A stretch of DNA of 64,000 nucleotides from Escherichia coli (GTDB taxonomy: Bacteria > Pseudomonadota > Gammaproteobacteria > Enterobacterales > Enterobacteriaceae). The notes under the pieces are model-generated. The model was not told where the DNA came from and ran no database searches. It worked only from the letters and a program-made list of their open reading frames with translations. Shown one piece after another: positions 14,862 to 24,735 of the stretch. The position numbers and the translations under genes are program-made. How positions within the stretch are numbered: the first letter of the stretch is position 1; each line of letters starts with the position of its first letter. Location of the stretch: assembly GCF_002854065.1 (NCBI RefSeq), contig NZ_CP024147.1; one strand, 5' to 3'.

Positions 14862-16326
<1,465 letters not shown>

Positions 16327-16493
16327 TGTTCCTCCTCACCCGCAACCACTCCGGGTGTTCAATAAGGCTATCCCTTAATTGTGCATGCTGTTGCGACTAT
16401 GCACAATTAAGGGATACGTCCTGGTGCAGGACTGTTGGTTATTTAACTTTGCAGGTATTATGCTTCGCATCAAAAATGAAGGGAGAGGAAAAG

Positions 16494-16985
16494 ATGCCAT
16501 CTTTCGATATTGTCTCTGAAGTTGATCTTCAGGAAGCACGTAACGCGGTCGATAACGCGAGCCGCGAAGTGGAGTCCCGTTTTGACTTCCGTAACGTTGA
16601 AGCCTCATTTGAGCTGAACGACGCCAGCAAAACCATCAAAGTGTTGAGCGAGTCCGACTTCCAGGTCAATCAGTTGCTGGATATTCTGCGTGCCAAGCTG
16701 CTGAAGCGCGGCATTGAAGGCAGTTCACTGGATGTACCGGAAAATATCGTTCATAGCGGTAAAACCTGGTTTGTGGAAGCGAAACTGAAACAGGGCATTG
16801 AGAGCGCCACTCAGAAAAAAATCGTCAAGATGATCAAAGACAGCAAACTGAAAGTGCAGGCGCAAATTCAGGGCGATGAGATCCGCGTGACTGGCAAATC
16901 TCGTGATGATTTGCAGGCTGTCATGGCGATGGTGCGCGGTGGCGATCTGGGTCAGCCGTTCCAGTTCAAAAACTTCCGCGATTAA
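16494..16985 (+). CDS. yajQ: Nucleotide-binding protein YajQ
   Basis: ORF 16326..16985 trimmed to ATG 16494 ([22 protein letters not shown]...), 163 aa. Confidence 0.9.
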
Positions 16986-16989
16986 TCGC

Positions 16990-17105
16990 GACAACCTGCG
17001 CTTTGTTCATGTCAGATGCGGCATGAACGCTTGGTTCGGCCTACAAAGGTTTGTAAATCAGGAGCTTAGTAGGCCTGATAAGCGTAGCGCAGCAGGCAAT
17101 TTCGC
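16990..17105. repeat. REP/BIME-like element between convergent yajQ and yajR
   Basis: Contains GATGCGGCATGAACGC...CGGCCTAC and inverted GTAGGCCTGATAAGCGTAGCGC REP-type sequences. Confidence 0.5.
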
Positions 17106-17112
17106 CTCGCTT

Positions 17113-18477
17113 TTATGCCTGGCGAATTGCCTGTTCAACATCAAAGCGATTCGTCACTTTGCTGTCGATTTTCACATAAGCTGAATGTTCTTCTTCTGCA
17201 ATCAACACTTCTTTGATGCCTTCAGTTTCTAGCAAACGCACTTTTAACGCCTCGTTTGCGGCAATGTTCGCCGGGATTTCAATGCGCAAGCTGCTGACAT
17301 ACGGCGGTTCTTTCATGGTACTGGCGACTGCCAGCCACACTGCGGCCAGCATTGCGCCAGCGAGAAATACGCCCTGACCGTCAAACATGCCGTCAATCCA
17401 GCCGCCCAGTGAACCGCCAATCGCCACGCCAAGAAACTGGCTGGTGGAGTAAACACCCATCGCCGTACCTTTGTAACCTGCTGGCGACTCTTTACTGATA
17501 AGTGAGGGCAGGAGGGCTTCCATCAAATTAAACGCCACAAAGAAAAGCTGCACGCCGACCACCAGTTGCCAGAACTGCGTTTGCGCGTTCCACAACACAA
17601 TTTCCGCAACCACGATCAACCCGACGCAGAAGACAAAGACTTGCTTCATTTTGCGCTTAACTTCAGCGTAGATAATGAAAGGCACGACCGAGCCAAAGGC
17701 GATTAGCATTGTCGCCAGATAGACCTTCCAGTGTTCAGCCGCCGGGAACCCCGCATCAGCCAGTTGTCCGGGCAGGGCAACAAACGTCGACATCAGCAAA
17801 ATATGCAGACACATAATGCCAAAGTTGAGTTTCAGCAGCCGCGGTTCCGCCAGCACTTTACTGAAACTGCCTTTCACCATTCCGGACTCACGATTAAGTA
17901 CGTGAGTGCTACTGTTGGGCACAACCCAAATGGTCAACGCAATGCCGGTCGTTGCCAGAATAGCGATCATCCAGAACAGCGCGTGCAGCCCAAGTTTGTG
18001 AGTGATGATCGGGCCAAGCACCATCGCAATGGCAAAGGTAATGCCAAAGCTCACGCCGATAAACGCCATTGCTTTGGTGCGGTTTTGTTCGCGCGTGAGA
18101 TCGGAAAGCAGCGCCATAACGGCAGCGGCAATCGCACCGGAGCCTTGTAGCGCCCGACCCAGAATAATTCCCCAGATGGAGTCAGAGAGCGCAGCGATAA
18201 CGCTACCGGCGGCAAACACTGCCAGCCCACCGACAATTAATGGTTTGCGACCAATGCGGTCGGAAAGCAGGCCAAACGGAATCTGAAAAACGGCCTGAGT
18301 CAGACCATAAATACCAATGGCAATACCGATTAATGCTTCGCTGGCACCTTGCAGAGCCATGCCGTACGTGGTCAGAACCGGCAGAACCATGAACATGCCC
18401 AGCATGCGCAACGAGAATACGGTCCCTAAACCCCAGGTCGCGCGCCGCTCACCTGGTGTCATTTTATAATCGTTCAT
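17113..18477 (-). CDS. yajR: MFS transporter YajR
   Basis: ORF 17113..18483 begins with GTG; ATG at 18477 gives 454 aa MNDYKMTPGERRATWGLG..., 12-TM MFS topology plus C-terminal cytosolic domain. Confidence 0.9.
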   Translation of the reverse strand: MNDYKMTPGERRATWGLGTVFSLRMLGMFMVLPVLTTYGMALQGASEALIGIAIGIYGLTQAVFQIPFGLLSDRIGRKPLIVGGLAVFAAGSVIAALSDSIWGIILGRALQGSGAIAAAVMALLSDLTREQNRTKAMAFIGVSFGITFAIAMVLGPIITHKLGLHALFWMIAILATTGIALTIWVVPNSSTHVLNRESGMVKGSFSKVLAEPRLLKLNFGIMCLHILLMSTFVALPGQLADAGFPAAEHWKVYLATMLIAFGSVVPFIIYAEVKRKMKQVFVFCVGLIVVAEIVLWNAQTQFWQLVVGVQLFFVAFNLMEALLPSLISKESPAGYKGTAMGVYSTSQFLGVAIGGSLGGWIDGMFDGQGVFLAGAMLAAVWLAVASTMKEPPYVSSLRIEIPANIAANEALKVRLLETEGIKEVLIAEEEHSAYVKIDSKVTNRFDVEQAIRQA

Positions 18478-18883
18478 TACCACCTCTTAAAAAAATGCCC
18501 ACATAGTGTAGTGCGGAGCGCATGTTGGGTAAACAGAGTGTTAATGAGAAAATATTACAGAGGAGAATAATTTGTGTGTCAGGTATGTTTTTTGCATTCA
18601 TAAAATGAATGCTCTATATGTTGAAAAAATGAATTTTAAAGCTAAATAGTTTTACATCAAAAAAATAATAATATCATTTCTTGATTACCATGTGCATTTT
18701 TTATCTTACGAATATGCTAGTTTTATCTTACTAAATAAACGATTTGGTGACATGGATGATAATGTTTCAGGCTAAATGTGTGCTTATTACTTGGGCCTTT
18801 ATGGCACTGTATTTATTCATTAAATGGATGTTTGGTGGTTAATTATTATGGAAGTATATGACAGTGAGGACATAAAGGTATAC

Positions 18884-19819
18884 ATGTTAACTAAAAGAAT
18901 ATTATTTTCTTTAATGCTAATAGTTTCACCAGGCGTGGTGGCAAGCGAGAAAGCGCATGAATTGTATGACAGCATATACGGTGGTCAACCTGCGCCCGAT
19001 GTTATAAATACACTGCATAAAATGGCTGAATTGGGAGATGTCGACGCGCAGAGCCTGTTAGGCTGGGAATATTATCAGCCTCGCTATGATACCAAACCTG
19101 ATGTTCAGGAAGCGATTAAATGGTTCGAGTTAGCCGCTAAACAAGGTGACAGAGAAGCTCCGTTAGCGCTGGGGAGTATCTACTACATCGGTGAGCTGGT
19201 GCGGGTGGATTATGCCAAAGCGTATGCACTATTTAATCAGGCCGCGCAATACGGTGTGAATTTAGCATGGTCCAGGTTGGGCATGATGTACGCCAATGGT
19301 CAGTATGTTGAGGTAGATTGTAAGAAAGCGAAGGAATATCTTGATAAAGGTGTCCACATTTATGGTGGTCCGGAAGACTTTCTGGCTACATGTCGAAAAG
19401 ACATGATTGACAGAAAAACGGTTGACGATACGTTACCCGTGATCACGGTTACCCGTTCTGGGATGCGGGATAATTTTTTAGATAAAGATTTTTCCTGCAT
19501 GGATAGCCTCTTCGCCACCACCAATAAATTAGGCGAAGTGGCCAATCTTCGCGTGACATTCAGCATTCGTAGCCCATCCGGTAAGGAGATTAACCAAACG
19601 GTTGGCTTCGCGCCTTTCGGTTTAAACCGGCTGAATATTAGCTTTACTGATTACATATTTGATTCATTTACCAGTAATTCGTCTCTAATTCTTTATAAAC
19701 CGGAATTTGAGCGAAAATCTTGTGCAACTGTAAGGACCACAATCGTTGCCGCAACGGCAACCATTAACGGCAAGGATGTGGAGTTGCTGAAAGCGGGGGC
19801 AATTGAACAAAAGTGGTAA
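18884..19819 (+). CDS. Secreted Sel1-repeat (TPR-like) protein with uncharacterised C-terminal domain
   Basis: ORF 18824..19819; likely start ATG 18884 preceded by AAAGG RBS, giving Sec-type signal peptide MLTKRILFSLMLIVSPGVVA-SE; three to four Sel1-like units (GDVDAQSLLGWEYY..., AIKWFELAAKQGDREAPLALGSIYYIGE..., AKAYALFNQAAQYGVNLAWSRLGMMYANG...); AT-rich; not in K-12 yajR-cyoE junction by recalled gene order. Confidence 0.7.
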   Translation: MLTKRILFSLMLIVSPGVVASEKAHELYDSIYGGQPAPDVINTLHKMAELGDVDAQSLLGWEYYQPRYDTKPDVQEAIKWFELAAKQGDREAPLALGSIYYIGELVRVDYAKAYALFNQAAQYGVNLAWSRLGMMYANGQYVEVDCKKAKEYLDKGVHIYGGPEDFLATCRKDMIDRKTVDDTLPVITVTRSGMRDNFLDKDFSCMDSLFATTNKLGEVANLRVTFSIRSPSGKEINQTVGFAPFGLNRLNISFTDYIFDSFTSNSSLILYKPEFERKSCATVRTTIVAATATINGKDVELLKAGAIEQKW

Positions 19820-19874
19820 CGCTGCTCAGCCCCCGGCTAAGGCAAAACTTGCCCTGGCGGGTGGCGATAATAAT

Positions 19875-20417
19875 CTAAGCCGCGAGAATATGCTGAATCG
19901 CCAAAAACATAGGTACAGCACCAAAAGCATTTGGTGTCGCTGAAAGCTGAACAAAGCCGAGACGAGCATAAAAGTTAATGGCGGCAGGGTCAGCATCAAG
20001 ATAAACCCCTTTAATTGGTAATGCCTGGTGAATTATTTTTACATGTTCAAAAAAATCACATAGTAGGTCCTGACCAAAGCCCCGCTTTTGATACTTCCGC
20101 GCCACCCCCAACATGACTAATCTGACAACACCAATCTCTGAAGGCTGTGAACCCTGAAGGACGCCAGAAACGCGTTGTTTTTCCAGCGAATATGCCGTAA
20201 AAGTACAGATGCCAATCAGTTCACCACTTTGTCTGTCAATAAGTGCTTTAGCCGCACAGTCGCTATTACGCACACTTTTCTTTAGCGATGTGCGTACAAA
20301 TTTATCGATAACAGGGTTACCGCAATCAAACTGTTTTTGCCCAGGATAAGTAATATCAGACTGATAATTACAGGAGAGGACTATGGGCAGAGTAATCTCT
20401 TCATGCTTGTCGACCAT
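19875..20417 (-). CDS. GNAT-family acetyltransferase, candidate type II toxin (TacT/AtaT/ItaT-like tRNA acetyltransferase class)
   Basis: 180 aa; N-terminal FDCGNPVIDKFV motif; acetyl-CoA pocket-like RKYQKRGFGQDLL; C-terminal INFYARLGF; start overlaps upstream DUF1778-like ORF by 17 bp; AAGGA RBS. Confidence 0.75.
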   Translation of the reverse strand: MVDKHEEITLPIVLSCNYQSDITYPGQKQFDCGNPVIDKFVRTSLKKSVRNSDCAAKALIDRQSGELIGICTFTAYSLEKQRVSGVLQGSQPSEIGVVRLVMLGVARKYQKRGFGQDLLCDFFEHVKIIHQALPIKGVYLDADPAAINFYARLGFVQLSATPNAFGAVPMFLAIQHILAA

Positions 20418-20712
20418 CGCTGTTTTTCCTTTTCATTAACGCCTTGAGTGCGAGCGTCGGTTGAGCAGGTTCGGCGATGAGTTGGTTCATCAGTTCCCAG
20501 CTTTGATTCGAAAGCTCACGGCGACGTTGGTTATCAAGCACGCTTTCGGCGCGTTCCATAGCAGCGCTCAAAATAAAGGCGCTTAAATCTAACCCAACGG
20601 CTTGCGCAGCTTCACGAAGTCTGTTTTTGGCGTCGGGACTGGTTTTGAGTTCAACCCGCGCATTTTTCAGCGTTTTATCGACATCGGGTAGAGTGGCTGT
20701 TTTTCCAGGCAT
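20401..20712 (-). CDS. DUF1778/ribbon-helix-helix-type antitoxin candidate
   Basis: ORF 20401..20778 trimmed to ATG 20712 (MPGKTATLPDVDKTL...) with AGAGGT RBS 7 nt upstream; 104 aa; pattern VELKTSPDAKNRLREAAQAVGLDLSAFILSA typical of antitoxins paired with GNAT toxins. Confidence 0.65.
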   Translation of the reverse strand: MPGKTATLPDVDKTLKNARVELKTSPDAKNRLREAAQAVGLDLSAFILSAAMERAESVLDNQRRRELSNQSWELMNQLIAEPAQPTLALKALMKRKNSDGRQA

Positions 20713-20765
20713 TGTGACCTCTTTGATTAACTGAATGAAATCGTAGGGAGTCGATCTCATACATA

Positions 20766-20784
20766 ATACGGCTATCAACCGTAT
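20766..20784. promoter_or_regulatory. Palindrome 1 ATACGG-N7-CCGTAT (putative antitoxin operator, overlaps transcription start region)
   Basis: ATACGGCTATCAACCGTAT read directly; lies immediately downstream of the putative -10 on the minus strand. Confidence 0.5.
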
Positions 20785-20788
20785 GATT

Positions 20789-20817
20789 AATTTATGTGCA
20801 TCTGCTCACTCTGTCAA
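20789..20817 (-). promoter_or_regulatory. Putative sigma70 promoter of the antitoxin-toxin operon
   Basis: Minus strand reads TTGACA (20817..20812) - 17 bp - TAAATT (20794..20789); perfect -35, 17-bp spacer. Confidence 0.5.
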
Positions 20818-20820
20818 GAG

Positions 20821-20839
20821 ATACGGTTATTAGCCGTAT
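20821..20839. promoter_or_regulatory. Palindrome 2 ATACGG-N7-CCGTAT (putative operator just upstream of -35)
   Basis: ATACGGTTATTAGCCGTAT; same half-sites as palindrome 1, centre-to-centre 55 bp. Confidence 0.5.
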
Positions 20840-20856
20840 CTCTGATCTCAGACAAT

Positions 20857-20882
20857 AAAAAAGGTGCCGTAGCACCTTTTTA
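20857..20882 (-). terminator. Rho-independent terminator downstream of cyoE (end of cyo operon)
   Basis: AAGGTGC-cgta-GCACCTT stem-loop flanked by A/T runs, immediately 3' of cyoE stop. Confidence 0.65.
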
Positions 20883-20896
20883 ATAGAGAGGTTTTG

Positions 20897-21787
20897 TTAC
20901 CACACAGCAGCCAGCAGCGTATGCGAGTCCGGTACCATAAAATCAACGGACATCATCACCGAGAGGGCAGTGATGGCGATGATAGAGAAGCCGAACAGCT
21001 TGCGCGCCCAGATTCTGTCATCAGCAACCTTATAACCGCGCAGGGCCATACCTAACCACCAGACGCTCACCGCCGCGGCGACCACCAGATATTTATATCC
21101 AGCGTAACCGCCAAGAGAGAGCATCAGCGTGGCAACGGCAAAGGCGATGATATACAGCGTGATGTGATTCTTCGCCACCGAAATGCCTTTTACCACTGGC
21201 AATACCGGAATGTTTGCCGCCTGGTAATCCTTAAAGCGGAAAATGGCGATGGCATAGGAGTGAGGCATCTGCCACAGGCTGAAGATAGCCAGCAGGATCG
21301 CTGCGCCGCTATCGAACTCGCCGGTTACTGCACAGTAGCCAATCACCGGCGGCGCAGCGCCGGAGAGCGAACCAATCAATGTGCCGTAGACTGAGTGGCG
21401 TTTCATGTACAGGCTATAAACGCCGACATAAACCACAAAGCCCATCACCCCCAGCCAGCAGGCCAGCGGATTCGCGCCAAACCACAGCAGCATAAAGCCA
21501 GCAATACCCAGCAAGGTGGCGTACACCAGCGAGACAGCAGGAGAGATCAGGCCTTTAACCAGCACCCGATTCTTCGTCCTTTCCATCTTTCTGTCGATAT
21601 CCCTGTCGATGTAGTTGTTAAACACACAACCCGACGCCACAACCAGTGACACCCCAACCAGCGTGTAGATAAACAGGGGATAATCAATGCTGCCCTTTGA
21701 GGCCAGCAGGAATCCCCCAATCACCGAGATCAGGTTGCCAAAGATGATGCCTGGTTTCGTTACTTGCAGGTATTGCTTAAACATCAT
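20897..21787 (-). CDS. cyoE: Protoheme IX farnesyltransferase (heme O synthase)
   Basis: ORF 20897..21832 trimmed to [18 protein letters not shown]... (296 aa). Confidence 0.93.
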
Positions 21788-21798
21788 AACCGCCGCTC

Positions 21799-24735
<2,937 letters not shown>

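Follow-up and report, generated by a model that had tools for sequence, protein, structure and literature searches.

A Sel1-repeat protein with a probable IrmA-like C-terminal domain at the variable yajR-cyoE locus of Escherichia coli

The Sel1 gene between yajR and cyoE

The stretch of DNA analysed here (the window) comprises 64,000 nucleotides of an Escherichia coli chromosome (contig NZ_CP024147.1, assembly GCF_002854065.1), in which the genes thiI-yajL-panE-yajQ-yajR are followed by a short variable segment and then by cyoEDCBA. The segment carries a gene for a 311-residue protein with Sel1-like repeats, referred to as the Sel1 gene, and, on the opposite strand, the toxin-antitoxin pair itaRT. 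Our analysis favours a non-enzymatic, exported binding protein built of two domains, a Sel1-like solenoid and a β-sandwich that is probably related to IrmA, a protein secreted by uropathogens. The flanking genes encode YajR, a transporter of the major facilitator superfamily, and CyoE, the haem O synthase. K-12-type genomes have an empty site with 17 bp in place of the 2.29 kb found here, and in blastn comparisons the homology to the window stops at 18563 and restarts at 20854. The G+C content is 30% in the 400 bp located 5' of the Sel1 gene and 44% within the gene, compared with 53% in the yajR and cyoE flanks and 50.5% in the whole window, and this low G+C content says that the DNA of the segment was originally foreign.

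A reading of the window made from the letters alone (the sequence-only reading) had taken the 311-residue frame for a real gene, and had named a fragment of a larger pseudogene among the findings that would refute it. RefSeq places a coding sequence at the same coordinates on an identical E. coli chromosome (WP_032280441.1, labelled 'tetratricopeptide repeat protein'), and orthologues of the same length (308-313 residues) are found in E. albertii, in cryptic Escherichia lineages and in Pseudocitrobacter. Against three Escherichia orthologues, the ratio of nonsynonymous to synonymous divergence (dN/dS, or omega) is 0.21-0.28 at a synonymous divergence (dS) of 0.34-0.40, with similar values for the Sel1 and C-terminal parts, which indicates purifying selection on both halves of the protein. 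YajR and CyoE have omega values of 0.02-0.06 at comparable dS, and the Sel1 protein thus changes five to ten times faster than its neighbours. The frame has its own leader and matches its orthologues in length, which rules out a piece of some longer pseudogene; the Sel1 gene is an intact, functional accessory gene.

Orthologues and RefSeq both use the ATG at 18884, which is preceded by AAGG 6 nt upstream. Another in-frame ATG lies at 18824, and the additional codons (18824-18883) would yield a protein of 331 residues. Upstream starts have been adopted in some database entries, such as the IAI39 copy and the 323-residue entry P0001, where they would bury the signal peptide, and these starts are probably mis-annotated.

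Architecture of the protein and the relation to IrmA

The protein begins with MLTKR-ILFSLMLIVSPGVV-A/SE (the slash marks the predicted cleavage site), a sequence with the layout of the Sec-type leader that had been proposed earlier: an n-region with a charge of +2, a 10-residue hydrophobic window (mean Kyte-Doolittle value 2.77) and V-x-A at positions -3 to -1. In a rule-based check, the same arrangement of n-, h- and c-regions was retained in 13 of 14 full-length relatives despite differing residues, and residues 1-19 are disordered in the AlphaFold2 model (pLDDT < 50). These features argue strongly for export of the protein, and its four conserved cysteines are compatible with an oxidising compartment.

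The several Sel1 repeats that the sequence-only reading had recognized in the N-terminal half are borne out by three matches to Pfam PF08238 (Sel1), at residues 54-89 (E 4e-7), 95-122 (E 0.019) and 131-155 (E 0.0021). Solved Sel1 proteins in the PDB align to residues ~32-157, with phmmer E-values ranging from 7e-41 (c5321/EsiB) to 1e-11, and the modelled residues 21-178 adopt the alpha/alpha superhelical fold typical of Sel1-like repeat proteins. The similarity to EsiB/c5321 (PDB 4BWR) amounts to ~24% identity and is limited to the repeat consensus. EsiB/c5321 is also a longer protein (467 residues in the PDB chain), while the protein studied here consists of three repeats with caps and the C-terminal domain. 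c5321 is an array of Sel1 repeats with no known β-sandwich. Other exported Sel1-like repeat proteins that may serve for comparison are HcpB/HcpC, LpnE and those of the YbeQ type.

The C-terminal half of the protein gave nothing significant in Pfam, NCBIfam and PDB sequence searches, and comparison of the C-terminal domain (C-domain) with the PDB, whether by single sequence or by profile, returned chance matches only (protein A repeats, hemocyanin). A HMMER search with residues 150-311 against 1.84 billion representative proteins yielded only 23 matches and, where these are full length, the C-domain always sits after Sel1 repeats; two of the matches (P0049 and P0055) are repetitive eukaryote-like proteins and were judged spurious. 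An AlphaFold2 model of the full-length protein, made with a 21-sequence family alignment (pLDDT 86.7, pTM 0.83), is helical as far as residue 178 and forms a β-sandwich at residues 187-310, and the C-domain modelled alone gave the same sandwich (pLDDT 84.9). As shown by the profile matches and this confident model, the predicted structure is a solenoid (residues 21-178) packed on a C-terminal β-sandwich of FNIII-like type (residues 179-311). No catalytic family matched either domain in Pfam or NCBIfam. Across the family the near-invariant positions are C170, L184-P185, C205, T213, G233, S261 and C280, together with the motifs NLR (221-223), FxxFGxN (242-248, with F242, F245-G246 and N248 as the near-invariant residues) and AxA (A290 and A292 in 290-292), and, in the alignment restricted to the C-domain (A3), also N295-G296.

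The C-domain is probably a distant member of the IrmA superfamily, an assignment that is supported and not proven. IrmA is known as C1275/C3665 of E. coli CFT073 (Pfam PF18673, PDB 5EK5). When 20 C-domains of the family were scanned individually, PF18673 was the only Pfam family matched at E ≤ 1e-3, by two of the 20 (best E 6e-5), and it was matched by six at E ≤ 0.1; two other Pfam families matched one member each, weakly (E 0.015 and 0.067). A home-made, narrow hidden Markov model of IrmA gave weak matches to the C-domains (<8 bits), the broader Pfam model performing better. Alignment of the C-domain family (A3) to the IrmA family (A5) by hhalign gave E 0.0031 with a probability of 10%, and a rerun gave E 0.0015 with a score of 25.9, compared with 12.5 ± 2.4 for column shuffles, none of which scored as high in 300 trials. 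The alignment pairs C46 and C105 of IrmA (precursor numbering) with C205 and C280, and the two proteins have in common an FG motif after strand C' and an A-T-x-x-x-N-G hairpin. Like IrmA, the C-domain is modelled as an FNIII-like β-sandwich, and the model is superimposable on 5EK5. C46 and C105 are the partners of the Cys21-Cys80 disulfide of IrmA (mature numbering), which was singled out by its authors as unlike other FNIII domains (PMC4807369).

There are also clear differences. IrmA is a stand-alone 13-kDa protein encoded after agn43-yeeR, whereas the C-domain is fused behind Sel1 repeats and encoded at yajR-cyoE. IrmA dimerises via a swapped 23-residue C-terminal tail, and the hhalign alignment stops before this tail, which has no counterpart in the C-domain. 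The acidic surface of IrmA (isoelectric point 4.7) is not kept either, the C-domains of the family having isoelectric points of 4.7-10. A pair of genes on PAI-serX of CFT073, encoding a 378-residue Sel1-repeat protein and a 180-residue hypothetical protein, was considered as a split version of the same architecture and rejected, as the 180-residue protein resembles neither profile; the pair (L018 34724-36438) is located a few kb upstream of agn43-yeeR-irmA.

The sequence-only reading had left the C-terminal half as a domain with no recognizable motif. It is indeed a separate unit of ~130 residues with no match in routine motif searches, but it is not an orphan fold, being FNIII-like and probably IrmA-related. 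A fold and a probable family can now be given to a domain that carries no label, or a wrong one, in databases. The novelty is modest: the combination of Sel1 repeats with an IrmA-like domain was undescribed in the literature searched, and both parts are of known kinds.

Table 1. Features of the yajR-cyoE region, with positions in the window
Feature	Position	Strand	Remarks and basis
Variable segment between yajR and cyoE	18564..20853		2.29 kb; blastn against the K-12 empty site
AT-rich upstream region, probable promoter region of the Sel1 gene	18484..18883	+	30% G+C
Gene for the predicted exported Sel1/IrmA-like protein	18884..19819	+	311 codons plus stop; open reading frame, RefSeq, dN/dS
Predicted signal peptide, residues 1-20	18884..18943	+	Predicted signal peptidase I cut VVA/SE; charge, hydrophobicity, -3/-1 rule
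Sel1-like solenoid, residues 21-178	18944..19417	+	N-terminal capping helix pair, three Sel1 repeats, linking helix
Conserved solenoid cysteines	C146, 19319-19321; C170, 19391-19393	+
Predicted β-sandwich domain of FNIII/Ig type, probably IrmA-like, residues 179-311	19418..19816	+
C-domain cysteines	C205, 19496-19498; C280, 19721-19723	+
G+C-rich hairpin between the convergent stop codons	19829..19865		RNA fold
itaT, GNAT toxin acetylating aminoacyl-tRNA	19875..20417	-	PDB 7BYY, E 1.6e-117 across all 180 residues
itaR, antitoxin of DUF1778/TacA type (ribbon-helix-helix)	20401..20712	-	Overlaps itaT by 17 nt; RefSeq; weak RelB/MobA ribbon-helix-helix matches
cyoE terminator hairpin	20858..20881	-	10 pairs and T tract; right edge of the variable segment

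Family, history and possible roles of the Sel1 protein

Two forms of the family exist, a long form of ~480-500 residues and a short form of ~310 residues, both with a leader and all four cysteines. The long-form paralogues of Salmonella, Pectobacterium, Pseudocitrobacter and E. fergusonii (annotated 'Sel1 repeat family' or 'putative periplasmic protein') resemble the short form in the leader, the final three Sel1 repeats, the cysteines and the C-domain, and differ from it by ~180 additional N-terminal residues with further Sel1 repeats. Foldseek searches against AFDB50 found the C-domain, at ~30% identity, after such extended arrays of Sel1 repeats in Salmonella (a 'putative periplasmic protein' of ~500 residues), Pectobacterium, E. 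fergusonii, Morganella, Proteus and Achromobacter. A pattern scan of GTDB species placed the family in Escherichia, Pseudocitrobacter, Pectobacterium and Affinibrenneria, a list to be read as a lower bound, given that the scan was pattern-limited and used a six-sequence alignment. A protein search with the A3 profile returned mostly fragments and did not add the Salmonella members. The IrmA fold, if correctly assigned, would be a fusion module that follows Sel1 repeats in several genera, among them Escherichia, Salmonella and Pectobacterium.

In some genomes of Escherichia and Pseudocitrobacter the long form lies directly upstream of the short form; the window lacks the long gene. On the 5' side of the Sel1 gene, 376 bp (18484-18859) are 73% identical over 389 columns to L023 2104-2490, which precedes a 499-residue long paralogue in a four-gene Escherichia haplotype (region and paralogue together, L023 2104-3990). 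The long gene is therefore absent from the haplotype of the window, and the short gene abuts the former upstream region of the pair. Between the Sel1 gene and its orthologues in E. albertii and the cryptic clade, dS is 0.34-0.39, only slightly greater than the 0.27-0.29 of the adjacent yajR (0.39 and 0.27, respectively, for the E. albertii copy alone), and the gene therefore appears to be old at this locus in Escherichia. The K-12-type empty sites may accordingly be deletions rather than the ancestral state. The description of the segment as an acquired insert holds for its base composition (30-44% G+C) and fits less well as an account of recent history. As for variation within the species and its close kin, an IS1B insertion splits the gene in one strain (NZ_CM128593.1), and truncated forms are common in Shigella sonnei (P0012, P0014, P0015 and P0038; 377 member sequences).

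Considering all of the evidence, we assign a probability of about 0.6 to the interpretation that the Sel1 protein is an exported binding protein of two domains, has no enzymatic activity and acts independently of ItaRT. The precursor would be exported by the Sec pathway and cut by signal peptidase I after VVA20, giving a mature protein of 32.6 kDa in which a short Sel1-like alpha/alpha solenoid is predicted to be followed by the FNIII-like β-sandwich. In the oxidising periplasm the four conserved cysteines may form two disulfides: C205-C280 inside the sandwich, equivalent by analogy to Cys21-Cys80 of IrmA, and C146-C170, whose conservation and place in the helices suggest a bridge between the last Sel1 repeat and the linking helix. 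By analogy with other proteins of these folds, the solenoid groove and a face of the sandwich could together provide the binding surface for a partner protein or peptide, in the envelope or, after release, outside the cell. At yajR-cyoE the gene would be the short survivor of an old tandem pair (long and short), and it is probably transcribed from its own AT-rich upstream region, convergent to itaRT.

Several observations weigh against parts of this interpretation. The disulfides and the interdomain packing rest on a model from only 20-21 sequences. With respect to IrmA, the query C-domain itself falls below threshold against PF18673 (E 1.6, 9.1 bits) and the hhalign probability of A3 against A5 is only 10-17%, and for these reasons the homology is probable and not proven. 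The net charge of the C-domain varies over the range of isoelectric points given above, so that no single conserved binding surface is evident. The Sel1 gene is never found apart from ItaRT in E. coli, which makes a functional link within the species possible, and the gene is unmentioned in the literature searched by locus tag and by the combination of Sel1 and IrmA.

Of the alternatives, the least unlikely is a secreted decoy for host factors, with an EsiB-like Sel1 part and an IrmA-like C-domain that together dampen mucosal immunity. The idea is attractive because the nearest solved relatives of the two domains, EsiB/c5321 and IrmA, are both antigens of extraintestinal pathogenic E. coli (ExPEC) reported to bind immune molecules. 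EsiB of ExPEC reportedly binds secretory IgA. For IrmA, binding of the interleukins IL-2, IL-4 and IL-10 has been found in enzyme-linked immunosorbent assays (PMC4807369). However, the family is also present in the plant pathogens Pectobacterium and Affinibrenneria, as well as in Pseudocitrobacter, Morganella and Achromobacter, and its E. coli carriers are commensal and laboratory lineages (HS, B and C), whereas the ExPEC strain CFT073, the source of the IrmA work, lacks it. Moreover, IrmA acts as a dimer whose subunits swap strands and has a long C-terminal tail with no equivalent in the Sel1 protein, and the acidic surface of IrmA is not conserved. A decoy function is, in our view, rather unlikely. 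A more specific version, in which EsiB-like immunoglobulin-binding and IrmA-like cytokine-binding modules form a bipartite secreted trap on one chain in a quarter of all E. coli, is more doubtful still. If it were true, receptor mimicry of the IrmA type would be a widespread modular trait of the Enterobacterales and not a uropathogen speciality. Both IrmA and EsiB/c5321 are ExPEC vaccine antigens, and the Sel1 protein of E. coli HS, B and C appears to unite the two module types.

Turning from the host to bacterial competitors, the protein could be an orphan that confers immunity to an antibacterial effector in the periplasm, comparable with the Sel1-type Tli5 proteins (PA5086-5088), by which a type VI phospholipase is neutralised. 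Genes of this kind are maintained as tandem arrays at variable loci, and the sequence-only reading had listed an immunity-like function among its options. We found no effector, type VI secretion system or contact-dependent inhibition gene adjoining the family in ~11 contexts inspected, where the flanks are housekeeping genes, regulators or the toxin-antitoxin pair. Known Sel1 immunity proteins have no β-sandwich domain, and the match to PA5086 is no better than that to many tetratricopeptide repeat proteins. The immunity-like role is therefore left with no support and is improbable.

It could also be argued that the gene is in decay and no longer has a function. The haplotype of the window has lost the long paralogue, IS1-disrupted and truncated alleles occur, notably in S. 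sonnei, the AT-rich promoter region is likely silenced, and omega is above that of the flanking genes. Yet the frame is intact in about 1363 genomes with 95-100% identity, both domains have a dN/dS well under 1 (dS 0.34-0.40), and the cysteines and motifs are kept down to 30% identity, which makes decay very improbable.

The ItaRT neighbour and other features of the locus

The toxin-antitoxin cassette that the sequence-only reading had seen convergent to the Sel1 gene is present in the same variable segment and consists of a GNAT toxin and a DUF1778 antitoxin. ItaRT has been characterised in E. coli HS and functions as a two-gene system when cloned in K-12 (PMC6125619); ItaT and ItaR are an experimentally characterised system of both HS and BL21. 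E. coli HS carries the same 2.4-kb block as the window, with 97.6% identity. The Sel1 gene and itaT lie on opposite strands with their stop codons 55 nt apart, and the Sel1 gene forms no operon with the toxin-antitoxin genes. The Sel1 gene was found in 1369 of 5426 complete E. coli genomes and the toxin-antitoxin pair in 1368, with 1367 carrying the entire block, and inside E. coli the Sel1 gene and ItaRT are thus all-or-nothing. Of the other genomes, about 1800 match only over the 40 bp of the cyoE terminator, and >2,200 have no match above threshold. Copies on 'plasmids' were discarded as evidence of mobility, the megabase records concerned being mislabelled chromosomes.

Outside E. coli the pieces separate. 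The complete set of long form, short form, ItaT and ItaR occurs in a divergent 'E. coli' lineage and in Pseudocitrobacter. An enterobacterial metagenome contig (L003) has the long and short forms with ItaR only; its orphan ItaR lies beside the Sel1 pair (6927-7544), with only ~300 bp where ItaT would be expected. A second metagenome contig (L006) has the long form only, adjoining cyoE. In E. albertii the short gene is followed by an open reading frame of 325 codons, with no toxin-antitoxin genes. In Escherichia sp. MOD1-EC7003 (L009 4194-5759) the short gene is followed by a LysR remnant and an N-terminally truncated M20 hydrolase (amidohydrolase), again with no ItaT. In both contigs, in E. 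albertii and in MOD1-EC7003 the genes occupy the yajR-cyoE position. In Pectobacterium and Affinibrenneria the long form is found at other loci, after an AraC/DJ-1 regulator and with no toxin-antitoxin genes. Conversely, a 97-kb phage-plasmid of Citrobacter freundii (NZ_CP145667.1) carries an ItaRT-like pair, with a toxin 78% identical to ItaT, and no Sel1 gene, which indicates that the toxin-antitoxin module is mobile alone. The yajR-cyoE spot has long been variable, and at least five combinations of cargo are found there.

The question raised earlier, whether the three genes travel together, can be answered in the affirmative for E. coli, and also for Pseudocitrobacter, but elsewhere each is found without the other. 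ItaRT is an unrelated, cytoplasmic two-gene system, and other species and the phage-plasmid show that it can be parted from the Sel1 gene. The separation outside E. coli, the convergent orientation and the different compartments suggest that the linkage is historical and not functional, and this argues for shared residence in a variable intergenic spot rather than a three-gene module. A third ItaRT component, such as an envelope sensor or accessory protein that modulates the pair, would explain the perfect co-occurrence in complete E. coli genomes (1363-1369 for each part) and the same arrangement in Pseudocitrobacter. It is at odds with convergent transcription, with the location of an exported protein compared with a cytoplasmic toxin that acetylates tRNA, with the presence of the Sel1 gene with no ItaT in E. 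albertii, cryptic Escherichia and other genera, and with the ItaRT-like pair that stands alone on the phage-plasmid. ItaRT also works when cloned in K-12, which has no Sel1 gene (PMC6125619), and PADLOC found no defence-system match, with one sub-threshold match in the Sel1 region. The proposal is hardly credible, and for research on ItaRT the implication is that the adjoining Sel1 gene is not part of the system.

Equally implausible is a periplasmic helper of cytochrome bo3 oxidase biogenesis, by analogy with the mitochondrial Sel1-repeat protein COA7: the family adjoins cyoE in several genera, but 75% of E. coli genomes, K-12 among them, do without the gene and still make functional bo3 oxidase. 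The gene also runs convergent to cyoE, with unrelated cargo between the two, it occupies other loci in Pectobacterium and Affinibrenneria, and the COA7 match is generic Sel1 similarity.

Regarding the remaining features of the locus, sigma-70-like hexamers are found upstream of the Sel1 gene at 18544-18571 and 18621-18650, as consensus matches only. The hairpin between the convergent stop codons could be a bidirectional terminator, as weakly suggested by its fold: the 74 nt that contain it (19812-19885) fold at -27.2 kcal/mol, no better than shuffled sequences (z-score -1.08), and it has no U tract. No Rfam family was found at 16000-22000. The cyoE terminator hairpin is kept in genomes without the insert, being the sole 40-bp match in the about 1800 insert-free genomes mentioned above. 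The left flank (18386-18563, the 5' end of yajR and its promoter) is 83% identical to K-12 and the right flank (20854-20996) 99.3%, a disparity which indicates that the two sides differ in recombination history.

Some minor observations concern the neighbours in other genomes. The 325-codon frame of E. albertii (L024 and L025, 5048-6025) is on the same strand as the Sel1 gene and is divided into two open reading frames in one strain; it had no significant match in Pfam, NCBIfam or PADLOC, with one sub-threshold NCBIfam match at E 0.012. The ItaRT-like pair of the Citrobacter phage-plasmid (L028 2706-3546) is located between baseplate and tail genes. Finally, some UniProt copies of the Sel1 protein are called 'zinc-dependent hydrolase', a label for which the M20 gene of MOD1-EC7003 might be the source.

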